Below, in pieces: positions 6,481 through 36,296 of a stretch of 39,727 nt of DNA (positions are counted from its first letter, which is position 1; the number at the start of each line of letters is the position of its first letter). The position numbers were made by a program, and so were the translations under genes. The DNA comes from a virus (lineage: Duplodnaviria > Heunggongvirae > Uroviricota > Caudoviricetes), in the IMG/VR virus record IMGVR_UViG_2778261268_000004. One strand, written 5' to 3'. The notes beneath the pieces were generated by a model. That model made no database searches. It was not told the origin of the DNA and saw only the letters and a list, made by a program, of their open reading frames with translations.

Positions 6481-6495
6481 TTACCGTTGAGGTAA
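6481..6495. promoter_or_regulatory. Operator-like palindrome TTACC-gttga-GGTAA (OL-like, site 1)
   Basis: Perfect 5-bp inverted half-sites; between leftward promoter and first leftward gene. Confidence 0.6.
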
Positions 6496-7302: not shown

Positions 7303-7317
7303 TTACCTTATGGGTGA
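7303..7317. promoter_or_regulatory. Operator-like imperfect palindrome TTACC-ttatg-GGTGA (OR-like)
   Basis: Same divergent region; an isolated GGTAA half-site lies at 7282-7286. Confidence 0.5.
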
Positions 7318-14830: not shown

Positions 14831-14907
14831 TGGCGTGGCATGCAGGATTCGAACCTGCGACCAACCGCTTAGAAGGCGGTTGCTCTGTCCAACTGAGCTA
14901 ATGCCAC
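14831..14907 (-). tRNA. tRNA-Arg (anticodon UCU)
   Basis: Cloverleaf folds by hand: acceptor GTGGCAT/ATGCCAC, D-stem GCTC/GAGC, anticodon stem ACCGC/GCGGT with loop CTTCTAA, T-arm GCAGG-TTCGAAT-CCTGC, discriminator G, encoded CCA. Confidence 0.85.
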
Positions 14908-15555: not shown

Positions 15556-17235
15556 ATGGCGGAAACAACTAAAGAGCGATTGAACAAACAGTTCGCACAA
15601 CTTGAAAGCGAGCGTCAGTCGTTCGAGCCGCACTGGCGCGAGTTGAGTGATTACATCAACCCGCGTGGTTCCCGCTTTCTGACTTCTGAGGTCAACCGTA
15701 ACGATCGACGCAATACACGAATTATTGATTCGACCGGGACTATGGCAGCGCGCACTCTCGCCAGCGGCATGATGTCAGGCATCACAAGCCCCGCGCGTCC
15801 GTGGTTTCGCCTGGCTACGCCAGATCCTGAAATGATGGATTATGGCCCTGTTAAGTTGTGGCTTGAGGCGGTGCAGAACCGCATGAACGATATGTTCAAT
15901 AAGTCGAATCTCTATCAGTCGCTGCCGCAGTTATACGGAAGCCTCGGCACATACAGCACTGGTGCAATGGCAGTGCTGGAAGATGACGAGGACATTATTC
16001 GCACAATGCCATTCCCGATAGGCAGTTACTACCTGGCTAACTCACCTCGTGGAAGTGTGGACACCTGTTTTCGCAAGTTCTCTATGACTGTTCGTCAGCT
16101 TGTTCAGGAGTTCGGGCTAAATAACGTCAGCGAATCCGTAAAAAGCATGTGGGAAAGCGGCACCTACGAGAAGTGGATCGAAGTGATGCATTCGGTTTAC
16201 CCGAACATTGACCGCGATACATCGAAGCTGGATAGCAAGAACAAGCCATTCAAATCGGTTTATTACGAGGTTGGTGGCGATAACGACAAGTTGTTGCGTG
16301 AGTCCGGATTCGATGAGTTTCCAATTATGGCTCCGCGCTGGGAAGTTAACGGCGAAGATGTTTATGGATCATCATGCCCGGGTATGCTGGCGCTTGGACC
16401 TGTTAAGGCATTGCAGCTTCTCCAGAAGCGCAAGTCGCAGTTGATTGATAAAGCCACCAATCCGCCGATGGTTGCTCCGACTTCCCTCAAGAATCAGCGC
16501 GCCTCCCTTCTTCCTGGCGACATCACGTATATCGATCAGATTACTGGTCAGGATGGCTTCAGGCCTGCTTATCTGGTTAACCCCAGTACAGCAGATTTGG
16601 TGGCAGATATTCAGGACACTCGTCAAATCATTAACAGCGCCTACTTTGTCGATCTGTTCATGATGTTGCAGAACATCAATACCCGCTCGATGCCTGTTGA
16701 AGCGGTGATCGAAATGAAAGAAGAAAAACTTCTGATGTTGGGGCCGGTTCTGGAGCGTCTGAACGACGAATGTCTTAATCCTCTCATTGACCGCGCTTTC
16801 TCGATGATGGTGCGTAAAAACATGTTGCCGCCACCGCCTGACGCGATGGAAGGCATGCCCCTGAAGGTCGAATACATTTCCGTCATGGCTCAGGCGCAGA
16901 AGTCTATCGGCCTGTCCAGTCTGGCGTCCACGGTTAACTTCATTGGTCAACTTGCGCAAGCGAAACCAGAAGCTCTCGACAAACTCAACGTTGATCAGGC
17001 GATCGATGCATTCGCTGATATGTCTGGAGTGTCTCCAACCGTCATTGTTCCGCAGGAACAGGTTGAGCAGGCTCGCCAGCAACGGGCACAGCAGCAACAG
17101 CAGCAACAAATGATGGCGATGGGGATGGCGGCGGCACAGGGTGCCAAGACGCTAAGCGAAGCTAAAACTTCGGATCCGAGTGTTTTGTCAGCTATGGCGA
17201 ATGCAGTTAGTGGTCAGGGTGGGCAATCACAATGA
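15556..17235 (+). CDS. Portal / head-tail connector protein, T7 gp8-like
   Basis: 559 aa with C-terminal QQQQQMMAMGMAAAQG tail reminiscent of T7 gp8; position after terminase. Confidence 0.85.
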   Translation: MAETTKERLNKQFAQLESERQSFEPHWRELSDYINPRGSRFLTSEVNRNDRRNTRIIDSTGTMAARTLASGMMSGITSPARPWFRLATPDPEMMDYGPVKLWLEAVQNRMNDMFNKSNLYQSLPQLYGSLGTYSTGAMAVLEDDEDIIRTMPFPIGSYYLANSPRGSVDTCFRKFSMTVRQLVQEFGLNNVSESVKSMWESGTYEKWIEVMHSVYPNIDRDTSKLDSKNKPFKSVYYEVGGDNDKLLRESGFDEFPIMAPRWEVNGEDVYGSSCPGMLALGPVKALQLLQKRKSQLIDKATNPPMVAPTSLKNQRASLLPGDITYIDQITGQDGFRPAYLVNPSTADLVADIQDTRQIINSAYFVDLFMMLQNINTRSMPVEAVIEMKEEKLLMLGPVLERLNDECLNPLIDRAFSMMVRKNMLPPPPDAMEGMPLKVEYISVMAQAQKSIGLSSLASTVNFIGQLAQAKPEALDKLNVDQAIDAFADMSGVSPTVIVPQEQVEQARQQRAQQQQQQQMMAMGMAAAQGAKTLSEAKTSDPSVLSAMANAVSGQGGQSQ

Positions 17236-17528
17236 CAGATTACGAAGACGATCAACTGAAAGAAGAAAACGCCCGTAAGCAACGTGACATGGCGCAGCGT
17301 GAAATTGATGACATTCGCTTTGTCATGAGCAGTGAACAGGGGCGTCGCGTTGTCTGGTCGGTGCTGGAGAAAGGCCGTGTGTTTTCCGCTATCTCACCGA
17401 TGGACGCTATGGCAATGGCATTTAATGAGGGGCAACGCAATCTGGCGCTGGAACTGTTTCAGCGCGTTATGTCGCATTGCCCTGAACAGTATTTGAAGAT
17501 GGCCAAAGAGGCCAGTGAACAGGAGTGA
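17232..17528 (+). CDS. Hypothetical protein
   Basis: Coupled ORF between portal and scaffold. Confidence 0.5.
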   Translation: MTDYEDDQLKEENARKQRDMAQREIDDIRFVMSSEQGRRVVWSVLEKGRVFSAISPMDAMAMAFNEGQRNLALELFQRVMSHCPEQYLKMAKEASEQE

Positions 17529-28820: not shown

Positions 28821-31295
28821 ATGAGACAGGAATGTATACAAGCGGTCCAGCAGGTGGCGCAGCGCGCGTTAACGGCGCGAGAAATACAGAACATTGAAGA
28901 CCGCATTTATCGAAATATGCGCTCCATTGCTCGTGATGACCCGATGTCGTGGCGACAACTTTCCGAATCAGAACGGTTGTATCGTGCAGCACAATTGGCA
29001 TCTGAAGAATTACAGCGAGAAGCGGCATTAAAGAAACGTCGTGTGGCCCTCGCTATAGCCGCACGTCAGAGATTGGATAAATTTATCAATAGCTATCAAG
29101 GGGCTGATGGGAAACTTGGCGCTCTTAACCGTACTATTGCTTTTAATGCAGACGGTAAATCGAATTTCCTCTCTGTTGAATCCAGAACAAAAGCCACTCG
29201 TGATTATGCATTGAGTCAATTGCAGGAGGCATTTGAAGCAGTTGATCCTCGCTTTTTTGGCCTGTTTGAAGATGAAGCGGGCGTGCGTGACCTGGTATAT
29301 GAAATGCGAGGGCAAAATACTGGCAATGCTAAAGCAAGAAAAGGTGCTAAGGCGTGGAGAGAAGTGACAGATCTACTTCGCCGCCGGTTTAATGATGCTG
29401 GTGGGGACATTGGCTATCTCGAAAACTGGGGGATCCCTCAACATCATTCTATGGAAAAGGTTGGGGCGGTATCAAAGGATAAGTGGGTTAGCGATGTTAT
29501 AGGTAAGCTGGATCGCAAATATTATACCCGAGCCGATGGACAACTGATGAACGATGCCGAGTTGTCTGCATTTCTTGGAGAGGCTTATAACACGATCGCT
29601 ACTGGTGGGCTGAATAAGCTTACTGATACCGGAATGCGAATTTCCGGCGCACGTGCTAACCGTGGTAATGCATCACGACAGATACATTTCAAAGATGCAG
29701 ATTCCTATCTCCAATATCAACAACTTTATGGCGATCGCTCTCTATGGGAAATCATGGTCGGTCACCTGGAAGGTATCAGTAAAGATATTGCTCTGGTGGA
29801 AACATATGGTCCAAACCCCGATCATGTTTTCCGCTCTCTTCTTGATCAGGTGAAGGCAGAAACGGCAACAGCTAACCCGAGTAAAACCGGTAAAGTCGAG
29901 CGGCTGGCGAACAACACAGAGAATCTGTACAACTTTATTTCCGGAAAGACACAGCCTGTAGCGAATCCGCACATCGCGCGATGGTCTGACAATATCCGCA
30001 ACTGGCTGGTTGCCAGCAGACTCGGTTCCGCGTTGCTGTCATCGTTCTCTGATCTTGGGACCATGTATCTGTCTGCGAAGGTGACCAACCTTCCAATGAA
30101 CCAGTTATTCCGCAACCAGCTTGAAGCTATGGACCCAACGAACCGTACAGAACTTGCGCGGGCGCGCCGCGCTGGTCTGGCGATGGAATCTCTACTTGGC
30201 AGCGTTAACCGCTGGGCGATGGATAATATGGGGCCGTCAGTGTCTCGTTGGGCGGCAACGGCGGTAATGCGTGCCAGTGGGCTTACAGCATGGTCAGATG
30301 CGCACAAGCGCGCCTATGGCGTAACCATGATGGGAAGCCTGGGAGAAGTAGTGTCACGGACACCAGACCTTCGTAGCCTCGATGATTCTGATTTTCGCAT
30401 CCTGAAAAGCAAAGGGATTACTGACACAGACTGGAGCGTATGGAAGCTGGCGCAACAGGAGGACTGGGGGAACGGCAATAATACGATGCTGACACCGGAA
30501 AGCATTATGCGTATCCCTGATTCAGCAGTTAAACATCTTGGTGAGCCTGAACGCGTGAAATTTGAGGCAATGCGTAAACTGCTCGGTGCCGTAACTGAAG
30601 AAGTTGATATGGCTGTTATTACACCTGGAGCACGTGAGCAGCTGATAACCGGTTCTGGTATTCAGCGTGGAACATGGAAAGGTGAATTAACGAGAAGTGT
30701 TTTCCTGTTTAAATCGTTCCCTATCTCGGTTGTTATGCGTCACTGGTCACGCGCTATGGGTATGCCGTCTGCTGGTGGTCGTGCGGCATATATTGCGACG
30801 TTTATTGTCAGTACGACCATTCTTGGCGCTTTGTCGCAGCAACTTAACGACCTTGCGTCTGGTCGTAATCCTCGAGAGATGACAGGAGAAGATGCCGCAA
30901 AATTCTGGCTTGGTGCTCTACTGAAAGGTGGTGGTCTTGGCCTTTACGGTGACTTTTTATTGTCAGATCACACTAGGTACGGAAGCGGCGCGCTGGCGTC
31001 GATGCTTGGCCCGGTAGCTGGTCTGGTTGATGACGTAGTGAAGATTGCTCAGGGCATACCGTTAAATGCTGTGGAAGGGAAGAGTGAGCAGACTGGTGGT
31101 GATCTGGTGAAGCTGGGGAAAGGTTTGATGCCAGGTGCGAATCTCTGGTACTTAAAGGCGGCTCTCGATCATATGATCTTTAACCAGATGCAGGAGTATT
31201 TTTCACCAGGCTATTTGCGTAAAATGGAGCAACGTTCGAAGAAAGAGTTTAATCAGACATACTGGTGGCGACCTCAGGATGTCACTCCGCAATAA
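28821..31295 (+). CDS. Internal virion / ejection protein, gp16-like
   Basis: 824 aa, last large gene of the core block. Confidence 0.6.
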   Translation: MRQECIQAVQQVAQRALTAREIQNIEDRIYRNMRSIARDDPMSWRQLSESERLYRAAQLASEELQREAALKKRRVALAIAARQRLDKFINSYQGADGKLGALNRTIAFNADGKSNFLSVESRTKATRDYALSQLQEAFEAVDPRFFGLFEDEAGVRDLVYEMRGQNTGNAKARKGAKAWREVTDLLRRRFNDAGGDIGYLENWGIPQHHSMEKVGAVSKDKWVSDVIGKLDRKYYTRADGQLMNDAELSAFLGEAYNTIATGGLNKLTDTGMRISGARANRGNASRQIHFKDADSYLQYQQLYGDRSLWEIMVGHLEGISKDIALVETYGPNPDHVFRSLLDQVKAETATANPSKTGKVERLANNTENLYNFISGKTQPVANPHIARWSDNIRNWLVASRLGSALLSSFSDLGTMYLSAKVTNLPMNQLFRNQLEAMDPTNRTELARARRAGLAMESLLGSVNRWAMDNMGPSVSRWAATAVMRASGLTAWSDAHKRAYGVTMMGSLGEVVSRTPDLRSLDDSDFRILKSKGITDTDWSVWKLAQQEDWGNGNNTMLTPESIMRIPDSAVKHLGEPERVKFEAMRKLLGAVTEEVDMAVITPGAREQLITGSGIQRGTWKGELTRSVFLFKSFPISVVMRHWSRAMGMPSAGGRAAYIATFIVSTTILGALSQQLNDLASGRNPREMTGEDAAKFWLGALLKGGGLGLYGDFLLSDHTRYGSGALASMLGPVAGLVDDVVKIAQGIPLNAVEGKSEQTGGDLVKLGKGLMPGANLWYLKAALDHMIFNQMQEYFSPGYLRKMEQRSKKEFNQTYWWRPQDVTPQ

Positions 31296-31648: not shown

Positions 31649-31720
31649 TGTGAAATTTCCATCTATAAGCCACCTCAATGTGGCGTCAATGAGTGTAGCA
31701 CTGACTTTTGTTTCGTCCAC

Positions 31721-31746
31721 AAAAAAGCCCGCGCTGCGGGCTTCTA
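31721..31746 (-). terminator. Rho-independent terminator after the unknown 210-aa gene
   Basis: GAAGCCCGC-agc-GCGGGCTTC followed by TTTTTT on the minus strand. Confidence 0.75.
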
Positions 31747-32379
31747 TTAATGCAGTTTATCTTTGCTTATAACCAGTAGTCTGTGGGTATGCACATCTTT
31801 ATCACTGCCCCAACAGAAATCAGCCCACTGGCTATAGAAATCATCCCATGATGTCATGAAGCTAAGAGGTCTATCTTCTTCAGAGCCATCTGAAACGTAT
31901 ACATTATATCCCGGGGTGTTTATAGCCCAAGAAATCATTCTTTCCCAGAATCTTCTCCCATCGATTGTTTGTTGCTCATCAGATACAACAATCGCATATT
32001 GCTCTAGGAAGAACTGAAAAAAAATCTGAGGCAAACCATGAACAGCACGGTCATGAATAACATTAGGCGTACGCCATACCATGATCTGCGTACATGTTCT
32101 TTTGGCTTCGACGATATCTTCCCGAAAGATTAACTTAACCGCATACACCGTTTCTGGAGTATCGCTGGTAGTAATCATTCTGTAATGATCGCCATTACAA
32201 GATTTTACAAGGCGATAACCATAAGGTGTTGTGAATCCCGGAAGAACGAAATCAACCACACCTTTCGCTAAGTAGCTTTCGGTGTGACTAGTGTTCTTCT
32301 CAGACATGTTCAGTTTTCTATCGAAATCTGCTTCTGGGATAATGTATGGCATCGCTTTTCTTGTTGTATTTGTTCTCAT
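31747..32379 (-). CDS. Unknown 210-aa accessory protein (moron)
   Basis: Strong GGGAGGA RBS 5 nt from ATG; own terminator (31721-31746); TTACC-N5-GGTAA operator upstream; no recognisable motif. Confidence 0.6.
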   Translation of the reverse strand: MRTNTTRKAMPYIIPEADFDRKLNMSEKNTSHTESYLAKGVVDFVLPGFTTPYGYRLVKSCNGDHYRMITTSDTPETVYAVKLIFREDIVEAKRTCTQIMVWRTPNVIHDRAVHGLPQIFFQFFLEQYAIVVSDEQQTIDGRRFWERMISWAINTPGYNVYVSDGSEEDRPLSFMTSWDDFYSQWADFCWGSDKDVHTHRLLVISKDKLH

Positions 32380-32438
32380 TTCGTCCTCCCATGTTTGGCT
32401 ACAGGACGCGTTTTGAAGGGAAGATTAAAAATGCTTTC

Positions 32439-32453
32439 TTACCCTTGAGGTAA
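32439..32453. promoter_or_regulatory. Operator-like palindrome TTACC-cttga-GGTAA upstream of the unknown 210-aa gene
   Basis: Perfect half-sites about 60 bp upstream of ATG 32379 (minus strand). Confidence 0.5.
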
Positions 32454-32525
32454 TAGTACGCTATTCACCCCCAGTCTGCAATCTGTACAGAATTATTTAA
32501 AGGCACATCCCTGTGCCGCCGCCCG

Positions 32526-33236
32526 TCAGAAGAACCCTGCCTTGTCGTTGATGTACTCCGCGTGCGTCTGGATATCACGCAGGCATTTGCTCACACCGAC
32601 GATGTAGCAGAACATGGTGGTCAGTTCCGCCGCCGCGCCCGATACGTCGTGCCCGTCTTCCTGTAACTGGTTTAGCAGATTCATCAGCAGTGAGCTCTCC
32701 GTCAGGCCGAGAACACCAGACGGCGAATGAATCAGGCTACGGTAGCCTGGCTTCAGTGGGGCACTGTAGGTTTTGTTCTCTATCTTCATTGCCTGCATCA
32801 CTGCTGATGCTGTGGCGTTGGCTACCTGGTCGGCAACCATCTTTATGCGTTCTTCCTGCGGGAGCGAGTTTTTAATGTAACTTCCGGTGCGGCGGATCTG
32901 AGGAAGAACCTCACCTGTAACCCATTTACGAAAGCGGTAGGGGATAGTGCCTGGTGTCACCGCATCGCGGCAGCGGAGGATCAGTGTGTAGAGGCCTGAC
33001 TCGGAGATGATGTTGATCTCTTTTACTCGGCTATCAAAAATTGCACGATGTTCATGCCCTATGTTGAACATAGACCTTTCATCATCATCCAGTTTTTCAA
33101 GTGATTGGGTGACGTTTTGGATACGCAGCGCACTACAAACGTCTTGGGCTACAAACCATGGTTGGCCATCGATAATGATGGAACGGATAGGGTTAACAGA
33201 TTCAAATTTGAAGATGGCAGTTTGAGCATTAGCCAT
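32526..33236 (-). CDS. Bro-N domain antirepressor-like protein
   Basis: N-terminal FKFESVNPIRSIIIDGQPWFVAQDVCSAL...ESGLYTLILR Bro-N pattern; GGAGAT RBS. Confidence 0.75.
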   Translation of the reverse strand: MANAQTAIFKFESVNPIRSIIIDGQPWFVAQDVCSALRIQNVTQSLEKLDDDERSMFNIGHEHRAIFDSRVKEINIISESGLYTLILRCRDAVTPGTIPYRFRKWVTGEVLPQIRRTGSYIKNSLPQEERIKMVADQVANATASAVMQAMKIENKTYSAPLKPGYRSLIHSPSGVLGLTESSLLMNLLNQLQEDGHDVSGAAAELTTMFCYIVGVSKCLRDIQTHAEYINDKAGFF

Positions 33237-33253
33237 GGTGGTTATCTCCACTT

Positions 33254-33268
33254 AGTGATTTTAATCAC
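33254..33268. promoter_or_regulatory. Palindrome GTGATT-TTA-ATCAC immediately upstream of the Bro-N gene RBS
   Basis: Inverted repeat located -15 to -35 from ATG 33236 on the minus strand. Confidence 0.35.
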
Positions 33269-33391
33269 CACCGCAACGCCAATTACTGGTGGTGAACTGG
33301 ACAAGGTTGGCGTACCGGCCTAAGTGGTACCGGCGTCCTTTCGGACCCCTGCCCAGCCCACCATAATTCGGATATGGCTGTGCTTAACGCA

Positions 33392-33414
33392 TAAAAAAAC
33401 CACGTCTGGCGTGG
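33392..33414 (-). terminator. Rho-independent terminator inside the antirepressor intergenic region
   Basis: CCACG-ccaga-CGTGG followed by TTTTTTT on the minus strand. Confidence 0.65.
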
Positions 33415-33505
33415 TATGCGCCACTTAGTAACTCGGGACGCCAATCCCGGCACTGGATTTTGCCAGTGCCCGATTACTATGGCACAAGAGGAGTGCGATG
33501 TAAAT

Positions 33506-33520
33506 TTACCGCAAAGGTAA
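33506..33520. promoter_or_regulatory. Operator-like palindrome TTACC-gcaaa-GGTAA
   Basis: Perfect half-sites in the antirepressor intergenic region. Confidence 0.45.
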
Positions 33521-33551
33521 ATATAAGCACTCATCTTGGTAATTTCAAATC

Positions 33552-33809
33552 TTATCTGGTTTGTTTTCGTAATTGTTCGGCACAATAGTCGAGATGTGTT
33601 TGCAGATCCCGCATAGACATCTGTGAGCTGGTGACGTAGTTAATCAGTGCAGTCAGTTCGGCAAGTGGGCCATCGACATTAAATCCATCCTTATCGAGAT
33701 CCCGGAGTAATTTCATCAAGTGCGATCCCTCCACCAGTGATCTGACGCCTCCCGGCGTGTGAATCCTTTCGGTAAATCCGTCTTCCAGTGGATAGTGATA
33801 CTGCTGCAT
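33552..33809 (-). CDS. Small protein paralogous to the C-terminal domain of the Bro-N protein
   Basis: RSLVEGSHLMKLLRDLDKDGFNVDGPLAELTALINYVTSSQMSMRDLQTHLDYC aligns with the C-terminus of the 32526-33236 product; GGAGAAG RBS. Confidence 0.55.
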   Translation of the reverse strand: MQQYHYPLEDGFTERIHTPGGVRSLVEGSHLMKLLRDLDKDGFNVDGPLAELTALINYVTSSQMSMRDLQTHLDYCAEQLRKQTR

Positions 33810-33885
33810 CTTATCTTCTCCATGCAATAACTGTATATTTATACAGTATCAAATAATTTGTTTGCTATCCAGCACGTTTTGTAAA

Positions 33886-33900
33886 TTACCCGAAAGGTAA
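33886..33900. promoter_or_regulatory. Operator-like palindrome TTACC-cgaaa-GGTAA
   Basis: Perfect half-sites in the divergent region between the antirepressor-like gene and the tailspike; ATGTGGTT at 33933-33940 and GGTAAT at 33946-33951. Confidence 0.5.
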
Positions 33901-34004
33901 TATCTATTCGTATTTACAGTCTTTCTATCCATATGTGGTTTTTCAGGTAATAGAATAACCAGATATGCGGCGCAACGGGTGCTGCGACTATCTGGAGATT
34001 TAAC

Positions 34005-36296
34005 ATGACGGTCTCAACCGAAGTTGACCACAACGAATACACAGGCAATGGCGTTACGACATCGTTTCCGTATACCTTCCGCATTTTCAAAAAATCCGAC
34101 CTGGTTGTTCAGGTGGTTGACCTTGATGAAAATATCGCTGTGCTGGCTCTTGATACTGATTACACTGTCACTGGGGCTGGTGGATACAACGGTGGCAATG
34201 TAATTTTGTCGAAGGCATTGGCCAGCGGTCATCATATTTCTATATCTCGAGAGCTACCAGTTACGCAGGAAACCGATCTGCGCAATCAAGGTAAGTTCTT
34301 TGCTGAAGTGCATGAGGATGCTTTTGATAAGCTCACTATGCTTATACAGCGGGCATATAGCGTTTTTCGCTTAGCTCTGCGTAAACCATCAAGCATTGCG
34401 AACTGGTACGACGCGCTGAACAACTGCATCCGCAATTTGCGCGATCCCTGCAACCCGCAGGATGCCGCCACCAAAAATTATGTCGATACGCTCGCAAACA
34501 GCAACTTAATCCGCACGCTGCGAGTTCCAGAAGTTATTATATCCTTGCCTGATGCTGAAACCAGAGCTAATAAGATGGTTGCATTTGATAGTATCGGCAA
34601 TCCTTTAGTGGTTTTGCCTCCTTCAGGTTCTGCTTCTGATGTTCTTATTCAGTTGGCTGCCTCAGATGGAGCAAAATTATCGTTAAGTCAAGTAGCCACC
34701 GCATATGGCCTTGATTTCTCGTTAGGCGGTGTATGGCGGGAGGGGGCGTTATCTAATGTTGATAACTGGTGGTGGTATAATAATAAAATCTACACTGGTG
34801 GTAGTGGCACTCTTCCGTCATCTCCTGCTTTGCCATGGTACGAAGTGACGGTAGCAGATTATATTTCTGTTGCTCAATTTTTCCCCATTACTGGTGATCC
34901 AGCGGCAGATAACTCAGCTAGCTTTAATGCTGCTGCAGCAGTTGCTTTATCGGCAGGAAAGAGGCTGTTTGTCCCTGCAGGAACTTACTATGTTAAGTCA
35001 CCAGTTGATTTAACAATAGGCACTGTTGACCTATTCGGGGATGGCGTTGAGAAGTCATTCATTATTGCGGGGAGTGGGTTCACTGGAGAGGCAGTTGTCA
35101 ACATGTACTACGAAACTGACTCTATAAGACGTAGCACATCTATCTATCACGTTACAGTTGATGGGAACAACATCGCCAACTATCCTTGCCGAATTCAATA
35201 TGTTCACCTAGGAAGAACCCATAATTGTCGTTTCATCAATGGCGCGGTGGCGAACTTATATACTATAAACGACTGGCTTAATACCTATGATTGCTGTTCT
35301 TTTGTTCCTGCGCCAAATCGCGGAGTTCACCTTGCTGGGGCTAACAACCGCGTAACGTTCAATAACTGTGGATTTGCATCAAATAAGGTCGGTGAATATG
35401 CCTTTTATGCTTCTGGTACTTCCCCTATTGAAGGTTTAAGCTTAATTGGATGTGACCTTGAGTTCGGCATTGGGCATGGCATGTACTTAAATACCCGAGT
35501 GACCAATATTGTTGGCGGGTACTATGGCGAAGCGATACAAGGCGATATTTTTACGGTTCCAGATGGAGTAGTAAAAATAAGCGGTGTAAATGCTTTTGTA
35601 GGATATTACAATGAGGGAGGAAGGTTTGTTGTTCTTGACAATGATGCTGTAGTTAAGGTTGATAGTTGCTGGATTGCAGATCAGGGCAACTTTAAACTTT
35701 CATTACTTGCATCAAGCGCTAACAACATGGCTCATGCTGTATTTACTAAATGTTATATTGGTGCAACTGTGTCTGGCCCACAAGTTATGGAAGGAGATTG
35801 TTTAGGCAAGATCAATATGAGGACGTTTGCAGAAAGCAGGGCAATCCTTTATACAATGAACAATACTGGTAATACAGTAACCAGAAGCAGATACAACTCA
35901 ATAGGAGCAAAAATAACCATTAATACCGTAACGAGCCCTAGTTCTAACAAGCTATCACTTAATACTAAGATAAAAGACAGAGGGTGGAAGGTTAACGACC
36001 GGGTGTACTTAATTGTTACTTATGAGAGTAATGTTGATATAAATATTTATTTAAGCAGTTCGATATATGCTGCATCGGATGCAACGCTATTTGGAACTTT
36101 ACCATCAACAAATGGTTCTTTATCTACGTGTTATATTGCTAATAATATTATTCCGGAAAATACATCTGAGATATTCGAGTTTTATGTAAATGGCGCTGGT
36201 GTTGGCGATTACTTTGCTATTCAGGATGTTACTCTTACAGACAGGTCATTCACTTTCAGTGGAACAACTATGACCACTTTTGCTAAGGCTGAATAA
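34005..36296 (+). CDS. Tail fibre/tailspike: T7 gp17-like N-terminal anchor plus beta-helix-like C-terminal domain (probable depolymerase)
   Basis: N-terminal pattern ending NKNYVDTL as in T7-type fibres; C-terminal repetitive Asn/Gly-rich region suggestive of a right-handed beta-helix. Confidence 0.85.
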   Translation: MTVSTEVDHNEYTGNGVTTSFPYTFRIFKKSDLVVQVVDLDENIAVLALDTDYTVTGAGGYNGGNVILSKALASGHHISISRELPVTQETDLRNQGKFFAEVHEDAFDKLTMLIQRAYSVFRLALRKPSSIANWYDALNNCIRNLRDPCNPQDAATKNYVDTLANSNLIRTLRVPEVIISLPDAETRANKMVAFDSIGNPLVVLPPSGSASDVLIQLAASDGAKLSLSQVATAYGLDFSLGGVWREGALSNVDNWWWYNNKIYTGGSGTLPSSPALPWYEVTVADYISVAQFFPITGDPAADNSASFNAAAAVALSAGKRLFVPAGTYYVKSPVDLTIGTVDLFGDGVEKSFIIAGSGFTGEAVVNMYYETDSIRRSTSIYHVTVDGNNIANYPCRIQYVHLGRTHNCRFINGAVANLYTINDWLNTYDCCSFVPAPNRGVHLAGANNRVTFNNCGFASNKVGEYAFYASGTSPIEGLSLIGCDLEFGIGHGMYLNTRVTNIVGGYYGEAIQGDIFTVPDGVVKISGVNAFVGYYNEGGRFVVLDNDAVVKVDSCWIADQGNFKLSLLASSANNMAHAVFTKCYIGATVSGPQVMEGDCLGKINMRTFAESRAILYTMNNTGNTVTRSRYNSIGAKITINTVTSPSSNKLSLNTKIKDRGWKVNDRVYLIVTYESNVDINIYLSSSIYAASDATLFGTLPSTNGSLSTCYIANNIIPENTSEIFEFYVNGAGVGDYFAIQDVTLTDRSFTFSGTTMTTFAKAE

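Follow-up and report, generated by a model that had tools for sequence, protein, structure and literature searches.

The DNA analysed here, referred to below as the window, is a stretch of 39,727 nucleotides from a tailed phage (IMG/VR record IMGVR_UViG_2778261268_000004) and represents essentially the complete genome of a temperate podovirus of Escherichia coli, which is epsilon15/phiV10-like (Uetakevirus). The locus in question is bounded by the last injection/structural gene (28821-31295, plus strand) and the tailspike gene (34005-36296, plus strand), and between them three genes on the minus strand are the sole substantial open reading frames (ORFs) within 31.7-34.0 kb. Two of these encode a large (236 aa) and a small (85 aa) protein of antirepressor families, which have a C-terminal domain in common and are separated by a spacer of 315 bp; the third encodes a protein of 210 aa. 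From 31700 to 34100 the sequence is 91-98% identical to that of Escherichia phages Phi05_2388 B, HEMP4, TL-2011b, vB_EcoP_ZX5 and phiV10. The locus is probably an anti-immunity region with two antirepressor genes, which would share one repressor-binding domain and each be kept behind a gate of its own.

Two antirepressor genes and a presumed common repressor

The small protein matches the chain named 'Anti-repressor protein' in the Protein Data Bank (PDB 5D50_E) with its residues 2-84 (phmmer, E 1.4e-46) as well as PHROG 450 (E 7e-48), and Enterobacteriaceae yielded about 147 standalone homologs, which are 85-86 aa long. Judged by homology, it is an ortholog of the antirepressor Ant of the epsilon15-like Salmonella phage SPC32H. 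In a passage citing Kim and Ryu (2013) the SPC32H protein is described as being produced following LexA cleavage (PMC7380047), and according to passages of a preprint it is a tetramer, which binds two dimers of the repressor Rep and thereby breaks the DNA-binding tetramer (bioRxiv 10.1101/2021.09.07.459249). In the window a predicted LexA (SOS) box was located 22 nt upstream of the ant start codon, and a box of the form CTGT-N8-ACAG precedes ant in 77 of 79 related loci. Counted by hand, the box agrees in 18 of 20 positions with TACTGTATATATATACAGTA, which we take to be the LexA consensus. Ant would thus apparently be released by DNA damage, if LexA recognises this box.

The large protein consists of a Bro-N domain (Pfam PF02498, residues 17-112, positions 32901-33188, E 3.4e-19) and an Ant-like C-terminal domain (residues 155-231, positions 32544-32774). 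It was assigned to PHROG 130 'anti-repressor Ant' (E 5.7e-56), while its residues 153-234 match PHROG 450 (E 6.5e-36) and its C-terminal domain matches PDB 5D50_E (E 1.7e-13); a PADLOC search with the protein gave no match. In BLASTP the small protein aligns without gaps to residues 155-228 of the large one (43% identity, E 2e-20), by which the shared C-terminal domain proposed in the initial annotation is confirmed. The same annotation had spoken of an antirepressor-like pair; both proteins do belong to antirepressor families, and what had escaped it was the identity of the small one with an antirepressor of solved structure, as well as the LexA box. Since the duplicated domain is homologous to this solved Rep-binding antirepressor, it would be the Rep-binding module of the Bro-N protein too, which offers a concrete hypothesis for the action of a Bro-N 'antirepressor'. 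ORF4 of phage ZX5 is 81% identical to the large protein overall and 99% across the last 82 aa, and passages of the ZX5 study report that its overexpression lowered lysogeny and repressor transcription and caused a shift towards lysis (PMC9782041). Among 86 distinct proteins encoded after isrK and C4 in related loci, 81 possess the Ant-like domain with a median identity of 98% to the copy in the window, and it is the N-termini that are swapped, being either Bro-N variants or an unrelated domain.

The presumed common target is the product of rep, which matches PDB 5D50_A ('Repressor') over its full length (residues 1-190, E 4e-42). In the Pfam search only helix-turn-helix domains and no peptidase S24 domain were detected in Rep, which would therefore not be inactivated by RecA-stimulated self-cleavage. 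In these respects the phage resembles SPC32H (PDB 5D50/5D4Z), where small Ant and Rep are homologous over the full length, Rep is likewise without a self-cleavage domain, ant is preceded by a LexA box, and its place is beside the tailspike gene. Unlike SPC32H, the phage studied here adds a second, larger antirepressor with the Ant domain behind Bro-N, and a unit of two small RNAs.

The palindrome TTACC-N5-GGTAA, which had initially been reported as a site in the spacer, is indeed present there (33506), but the initial annotation missed its genome-wide occurrence, including the flanks of the repressor gene: the window contains it 10 times in exact form, whereas each of 100 shuffles contained 0 copies, and those at 6481, 6543 and 7255 flank rep. 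From this distribution we infer a putative Rep operator, the set being dispersed over the genome like the C1 operators of P1, of which there are 22 (PMC8546580). Two pairs of palindromes (6481/6543 and 9586/9648) are each exactly 62 bp apart, and half-partners with one mismatch were observed at 7303 and 12087.

IsrK and C4 RNAs in the spacer

The spacer holds, on the minus strand, a Rep-operator-like palindrome, an IsrK-like small RNA (sRNA) with its terminator, and an antisense RNA of the C4 type (Table 1). Both RNAs match their Rfam models in full length and above the gathering score, IsrK with 67.2 bits (RF01394, gathering score 50, E 2e-12, model positions 1-77 of 77) and C4 with 66 bits (RF01695, gathering score 45, E 8.5e-11, model positions 1-87 of 87). 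The intrinsic terminator of IsrK extends from 33415 to 33399 and is followed by a U-run, and C4 ends, on the same strand, 48 nt ahead of the large antirepressor's start codon. A minus-strand RNA of 276 nt from this region was predicted to fold more stably than 200 of 200 shuffles (z = -4.65). The initial suggestions that the spacer is not plain promoter DNA and may encode a small RNA, for which RNA structure prediction had been proposed as a check, are thus supported.

Table 1. Positions of the genes, RNAs and sequence elements discussed, in coordinates of the window.
Feature	Position	Strand	Description
rep, phage repressor	6615..7199	-	presumed common target of both antirepressors; PDB 5D50_A
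TTACC-N5-GGTAA, exact copies	6481, 6543, 7255, 9586, 9648, 12069, 15230, 32439, 33506, 33886		putative Rep operators
Hairpin GGCACA-GGGA-UGUGCC then UUUAAAUAAUU	32502..32517	-	8 nt past the stop codon of the large antirepressor gene; read from the sequence
Large antirepressor, 236 aa	32526..33236	-	Pfam Bro-N, PHROG 130, PHROG 450, PDB 5D50_E
Target region of C4 in mRNA leader	33248..33282	-	contains a2 and b2
Target a2, CUAAGUGG	33248-33255		overlaps Shine-Dalgarno GGAG (33246-33249)
Target b2, UUGGCGU	33276-33282		antirepressor mRNA leader
C4-type antisense RNA	33285..33368	-	17-bp closing stem, two hairpins
C4 element b', ACGCCAA	33307-33313 (+ strand)		single strand after C4 hairpin 2
C4 element a', CCACUUAG	33320-33327 (+ strand)		loop of C4 hairpin 2
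IsrK-like sRNA	33393..33469	-	two 5' hairpins, spacer, intrinsic terminator
Target a1, CUAAGUGG	33421-33428 (+ strand)		in IsrK; ends 5 nt before terminator stem
Target b1, UUGGCGU	33438-33444 (+ strand)		loop of IsrK hairpin 2
Promoter-like TTTACA-17-CATAGT, TG upstream	33504-33476	-	start would fall at about the IsrK 5' end; consensus scan only
Rep-operator-like palindrome	33506..33520		promoter region of the RNA/antirepressor unit
Promoter-like TTGAAA-17-TATATT	33548-33520	-	abuts operator; consensus scan only
ant, small antirepressor, 85 aa	33552..33809	-	PDB 5D50_E, PHROG 450
LexA (SOS) box CTGT-N8-ACAG	33831..33846		minus strand reads tACTGTATAAATATACAGtt; sequence scan
Rep-operator-like palindrome	33886..33900		upstream of small ant; kept in most related loci

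Exact complements of the two C4 elements a' and b' occur twice, once within IsrK and once downstream of C4, in the order UUGGCGU ... CUAAGUGG, and in the downstream pair a2 overlaps the Shine-Dalgarno sequence, at a distance of 12 nt from the start codon (33236) of the gene for the large antirepressor. This arrangement of a1, b1, a2 and b2 corresponds to what we take to be the anatomy of c4 in the immI region of P1 and P7; P4 CI with seqA and seqC is laid out in the same way (PMC4825925). At the level of DNA, CCACTTAGT was found at 33248 and 33421 with no other copy in the 39.7-kb window, and the inverted 8-mer CTAAGTGG at 33320 is the sole occurrence.

All spacer elements listed in the initial annotation are present with shifts of at most 2 nt, and most could be assigned to the two RNAs. 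The hairpin GGCACTGG...CCAGTGCC (33449-33470), described there as an 8-bp GC hairpin, is IsrK hairpin 1, and the terminator is that of IsrK; the direct repeat GTACCGGC (33312 and 33327, the latter given as 33326) represents both arms of C4 hairpin 2, and the inverted copy of CCACTTAG (33320, given as 33318) is the loop of that hairpin. The element GTGATTTTAATCAC lies at 33255. The proposal of a multi-operator control holds in so far as one operator-like palindrome is present, whereas the repeats are not operators for a protein but the loops with which C4 recognises its target, together with the two copies of that target.

A CCA directly follows the closing stem of C4. In P1 and P4 such an RNA is excised from its precursor by RNase P, and we take the CCA to be the one hint of a similar excision in the window.

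Related loci were collected from IMG/VR by means of the small protein (80 loci) and of an 18-nt IsrK motif (120 more), and annotated phages were added. Of 13 related loci scanned, 12 have both IsrK and C4 above the Rfam gathering thresholds, Enterobacter phage Tyrion and a prophage of Klebsiella among them; in the remaining one, Salmonella phage 65FD, the IsrK-C4 module was not found. Among 72 distinct leaders, seven a-types (CCUUUGUAG, CCACUUAG, CCUUUUAG, CCUACUAG, GCAGGUA, CCGAUAAC and CUGUGACG) and four b-types (ACGCCAA, AGACCAA, GUGCAAA and GUUCCAA) were seen in 16 combinations. Co-variation was assessed with core-based contingency tables, G-U pairs being permitted: the IsrK window holds the cognate complement of a and of b in all leaders (72/72 each), and the window around the ribosome binding site (RBS) holds that of a in 70/72 and that of b in 72/72, the two exceptions showing one mismatch. 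Off the diagonal, non-cognate complements were confined to two cells in the table for a and two in that for b, all of them owing to permitted G-U pairs. The co-variation of all three copies speaks strongly for a pairing of C4 with the IsrK region as well as with the RBS of the large antirepressor gene, and it provides a natural set of orthogonal antisense/target pairs and a testable model of heteroimmunity between near-identical prophages.

Because the a and b sites vary in length by type (8 versus 9 nt, and one extra nucleotide before b'), the columns of a MAFFT alignment shift in register, and column-wise pair counting is therefore unsuited to these intermolecular helices. For the intramolecular structure RNAalifold was run on 34 representatives and recovered IsrK hairpins 1 and 2, the closing stem of C4 and C4 hairpin 2, with eight pairs changed on both sides and compensatory changes in the closing stem. 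RNAalifold also predicted a conserved helix of GGUGGU with ACCAC(C/U)AU (alignment columns 248-253 and 281-286; window 33237-33270, minus strand), which would enclose both the Shine-Dalgarno sequence and the ATG of the gene for the large antirepressor and may add a structural block to translation in cis.

Proposed control of the antirepressors and competing explanations

In the scheme that we propose, either antirepressor would inactivate the same Rep, each in response to a different signal. LexA would repress the small ant via the SOS box, and upon DNA damage Ant would be made and the non-cleavable Rep inactivated. The large antirepressor gene would be the last part of a unit, preceded by a promoter with Rep operator, IsrK, the terminator and C4. 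In the lysogen most transcripts would end at the IsrK terminator and yield a short sRNA, while C4 would be excised from those that read through; its elements a', exposed in a loop, and b', single-stranded, would pair with a2 and b2 on the mRNA, cover the Shine-Dalgarno sequence and so block synthesis of the large antirepressor, presumably at the level of translation rather than by termination. Pairing of b1 and a1 in IsrK with C4 would tune the block, be it in cis within the precursor or, with IsrK acting as a decoy, in trans. As a and b types differ among otherwise near-identical phages, they might determine an immunity specificity at the RNA level, comparable to P1 versus P7. Prophages of this kind, with relatives in E. 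coli O157 and other Shiga toxin-producing strains, would then have two induction inputs independent of each other, the SOS response and the RNA lock.

The RNA/antirepressor unit is autonomous, since in relatives with foreign genes between ant and isrK the conservation resumes exactly at the 33506 palindrome. A further candidate, according to which SOS-induced ant transcripts read into IsrK and titrate C4, was largely set aside on account of the opposite-strand insertions of the relatives and this restart of conservation at the operator.

Much of the scheme has a precedent in the immI regions of P1 and P7 (c4, icd, ant1/ant2). In both, a C4-family RNA (RF01695) precedes an antirepressor gene, in the window on what would be one transcript. 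Also common to both are two short recognition elements with one copy upstream and one downstream over the RBS, sequence types that vary between related phages, and an operator (putative in the window) of the main repressor at the operon promoter, this repressor having many dispersed operators; in P1, Ant synthesis is kept down by c4 RNA (PMC8546580). Unlike in P1 and P7, the ORF list of the window shows nothing icd-like, nor any other ORF, in the interval from C4 to the ATG of the gene for the large antirepressor, and the target therefore overlaps the Shine-Dalgarno sequence of the antirepressor itself, the intervening icd being a feature of the P1 operon and not of the RNA family. Moreover, the upstream target copy here sits inside a terminated sRNA, and the antirepressors seem to be different, Bro-N and the SPC32H Ant-like domain being the only domains detected here.

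Several observations weigh against the scheme. The co-variation supports the pairing and not its outcome, so that a block of translation, termination or processing could all fit; promoter, RNA ends and RNA processing are deduced from the letters of the sequence, and the palindrome is linked to Rep solely via its distribution. As the operator at 33506-33520 is located just upstream of the -35 element of the promoter at the IsrK start, Rep could activate the unit instead of repressing it. Furthermore, in the Salmonella prophage Gifsy-1 the short IsrK activates translation of the antirepressor gene anrP via the upstream orf45 by translational coupling, and constitutive STnc1160, the C4-like RNA, gave no protective effect (PMC4825925).

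The last point leads to the first competing explanation, an activation of the Gifsy-1 type, which we regard as possible if rather doubtful. Here the read-through mRNA would be inactive through pairing in cis of b1/a1 with the C4 region, and the C4-like RNA would mostly be a processing product. The isrK-orf45(STnc1160)-anrP unit of Gifsy-1 is homologous and has been studied experimentally (PMC4825925): it comprises a promoter, IsrK with a leaky terminator, a processed C4-like RNA and an antirepressor gene, and IsrK is complementary to the C4-like region and controls the antirepressor by pairing. In the window, IsrK matches the full Rfam model above threshold, and the co-variation of a1/b1 with a'/b' is compatible with a conserved helix between IsrK and the C4 region. 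However, the Gifsy-1 mechanism requires translation of orf45 coupled to that of the antirepressor, and the equivalent frame across C4, open in ZX5, is interrupted in the window, where the a' loop contains a TAG; no ORF in the list ends at the start codon of the large antirepressor gene. Translational coupling through orf45 was rejected for the window on these grounds, and the mechanism is therefore not transferable unchanged. Nor does it account for the fact that in 70-72 of 72 leaders b2/a2 over the Shine-Dalgarno sequence vary together with a'/b'. Further differences are that isrJ was not found here and that the carrier is a Uetakevirus podovirus and not a lambdoid prophage; Hfq binding of IsrK and trans-activation of antirepressor translation were shown only for Gifsy-1 (PMC4825925), where the downstream outcome is activation of the antQ operon. 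The Gifsy-1 type of activation and the block by C4 are not exclusive and can coexist.

Somewhat unlikely, in our estimation, is a control of the P4 CI type, in which C4 would act on b1/a1 and b2/a2 of the nascent transcript and make transcription end early, by intrinsic termination at IsrK and by Rho-dependent termination further downstream, occlusion of the RBS not being primary. C4 and P4 CI belong to one Rfam clan (CL00128), and a1 ends 5 nt ahead of the terminator stem. In P1, the block of icd translation by c4 leads to Rho-dependent termination ahead of ant, which could be put forward on the same side. P4 immunity (CI RNA, seqA, seqC) is likewise based on a processed RNA, which terminates transcription via complementary sites upstream and downstream, and the same was suggested for STnc1160 by the Gifsy-1 authors (PMC4825925). 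In P4, however, CI controls replication genes and an antirepressor is not involved; in the window no intervening ORF is available for polarity, and the position of a2 on the Shine-Dalgarno sequence, 12 nt from the start codon, is the geometry expected of translational occlusion.

It is very improbable that the small protein is a dominant-negative anti-antirepressor, which would co-assemble with the Bro-N protein via the shared domain. The 43% identity of the domain speaks for it, and mixed oligomers are conceivable, as SPC32H Ant is reportedly a tetramer in passages of the preprint cited above (bioRxiv 10.1101/2021.09.07.459249). Yet the ortholog has been solved in complex with Rep (5D50) and is cited as an SOS-induced antirepressor in the passage on SPC32H (PMC7380047), and Salmonella relatives such as 65FD possess, unlike the phage studied here, the small gene only and no large one, so that small Ant must work by itself.

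That the spacer is protein-coding (an ORF of 100 aa at 33585-33283, or the 37-aa 'ash family protein' of the ZX5 annotation) or a P22-like array of operators with Arc/Mnt-type repressors is hardly credible: ORFs of 34-100 aa do overlap it and one Rep-operator-like palindrome is present, but two full-length Rfam matches lie above threshold, stems co-vary and frame-breaking indels occur among relatives, the frame is closed in the window, the repeats co-vary as RNA complements, unlike protein-binding repeats, and neither an Arc/Mnt domain (Pfam, three minus-strand genes) nor a sar RNA (Rfam hits) was found. The likeness to the ant region of P22 noted initially accordingly extends to position and function, immI of P22 (mnt, arc, ant, sar) being a second immunity region with an antirepressor between the injection-protein and tailspike genes, but not to mechanism, which in P22 involves two ribbon-helix-helix repressors and the cis-antisense sar RNA. 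The two RNAs belong to the antisense kind of control known from P1/P7 c4, P4 CI and Gifsy-1 isrK rather than to that of P22, and the initial interpretation as a whole is partly supported.

Returning to the block by C4, we tentatively consider the a and b elements as a combinatorial two-site RNA lock, which would define RNA heteroimmunity groups among Uetakevirus-like prophages, the types (at least seven for a and four for b) being spread over phages with nearly identical Ant and Ant-like domains; this extension seems possible, yet the odds are rather against it. If it were true, the C4 of a resident prophage would silence the large antirepressor of an invader only when types match, whereas a mismatched invader would express its Bro-N-Ant protein and inactivate the resident Rep, whose protein specificity is the same, with induction or escape from immunity as the result. 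Phages with two modules would stack locks in an arms race, and IsrK would be a built-in decoy by which a phage opens its own lock. The logic of such a lock is known from P1 and P7; its extent, the recombination of a with b types and the shared Ant domain are, as far as we found, undescribed in this group. The families to which the components of the locus belong have all been described before, and sequences of near-identical phages are publicly available. Three features appear to be undescribed for this phage group and suggest heteroimmunity at the RNA level: an SOS-gated Ant combined with a Bro-N::Ant fusion behind an RNA gate, a wide range of modular a and b types despite identical protein specificity, and genomes whose two modules differ in type.

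Related loci and neighbouring genes

Four IMG/VR contigs (L115, L148, L151 and L162) contain two isrK-C4-antirepressor modules each in opposite orientation; in all four, the copies differ in a' or b' type and in the N-terminal domain of the protein and have the same Ant-like C-terminus. In many relatives the small ant and the IsrK promoter are separated by inserted cargo on the opposite strand, 0.9-1.1 kb in length (e.g., L056 2781-3509, L042 2783-3734 and L003 2622-3710), for instance a gene for a membrane-anchored, Cys-rich protein of 242 aa or a pair of genes for 203 and 151 aa.

The layout of the locus in ZX5, including small ant, IsrK and C4, is the same as in the window, with the difference that its C4 has the a-type CCUUUUAG; in passages of the ZX5 study, both the RNAs and the small ant go unmentioned (PMC9782041). 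The coding sequence of the ZX5 'ash family protein' (L002 1779-1892) and the phiV10 misc_feature 'similar to SF0880' coincide in position with the C4 RNA and have probably been mis-annotated. For phiV10-like phages the annotation could be amended accordingly: C4 is filed as 'ash family protein' in ZX5 or as an unnamed misc_feature in phiV10, the small ant bears the label 'hypothetical', and the name antirepressor given to the Bro-N protein comes without any mention of a link to Rep. In phiV10, gp23 (L001 1607-2191, 194 aa) is shortened by a frameshift inside the Ant-like domain. Leaders resembling the part from the IsrK terminator to C4 (about 70% identity) were encountered in more than 200 records of Stx1/Stx2-converting phages (records H30-H53, e.g., VT2-Sakai 17183-17384), and the matching region is without annotation in most of those listed.

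Past the stop codon of the large antirepressor gene, the hairpin at 32502-32517 might serve the unit as a weak terminator, although it is absent from the output of the terminator scan. The gene directly downstream of the unit (31747-32379, minus strand) has its own TTACC-N5-GGTAA palindrome at 32439, and its product of 210 aa matches PHROG 1349 (unknown function) along the full length, with no match in Pfam or PADLOC. Its slot holds other cargo in relatives, such as the YafO toxin in TL-2011b. Elsewhere in the window, a tRNA-Arg gene (anticodon TCT) is encoded at 14831-14907 on the minus strand (ARAGORN; Rfam 73 bits).

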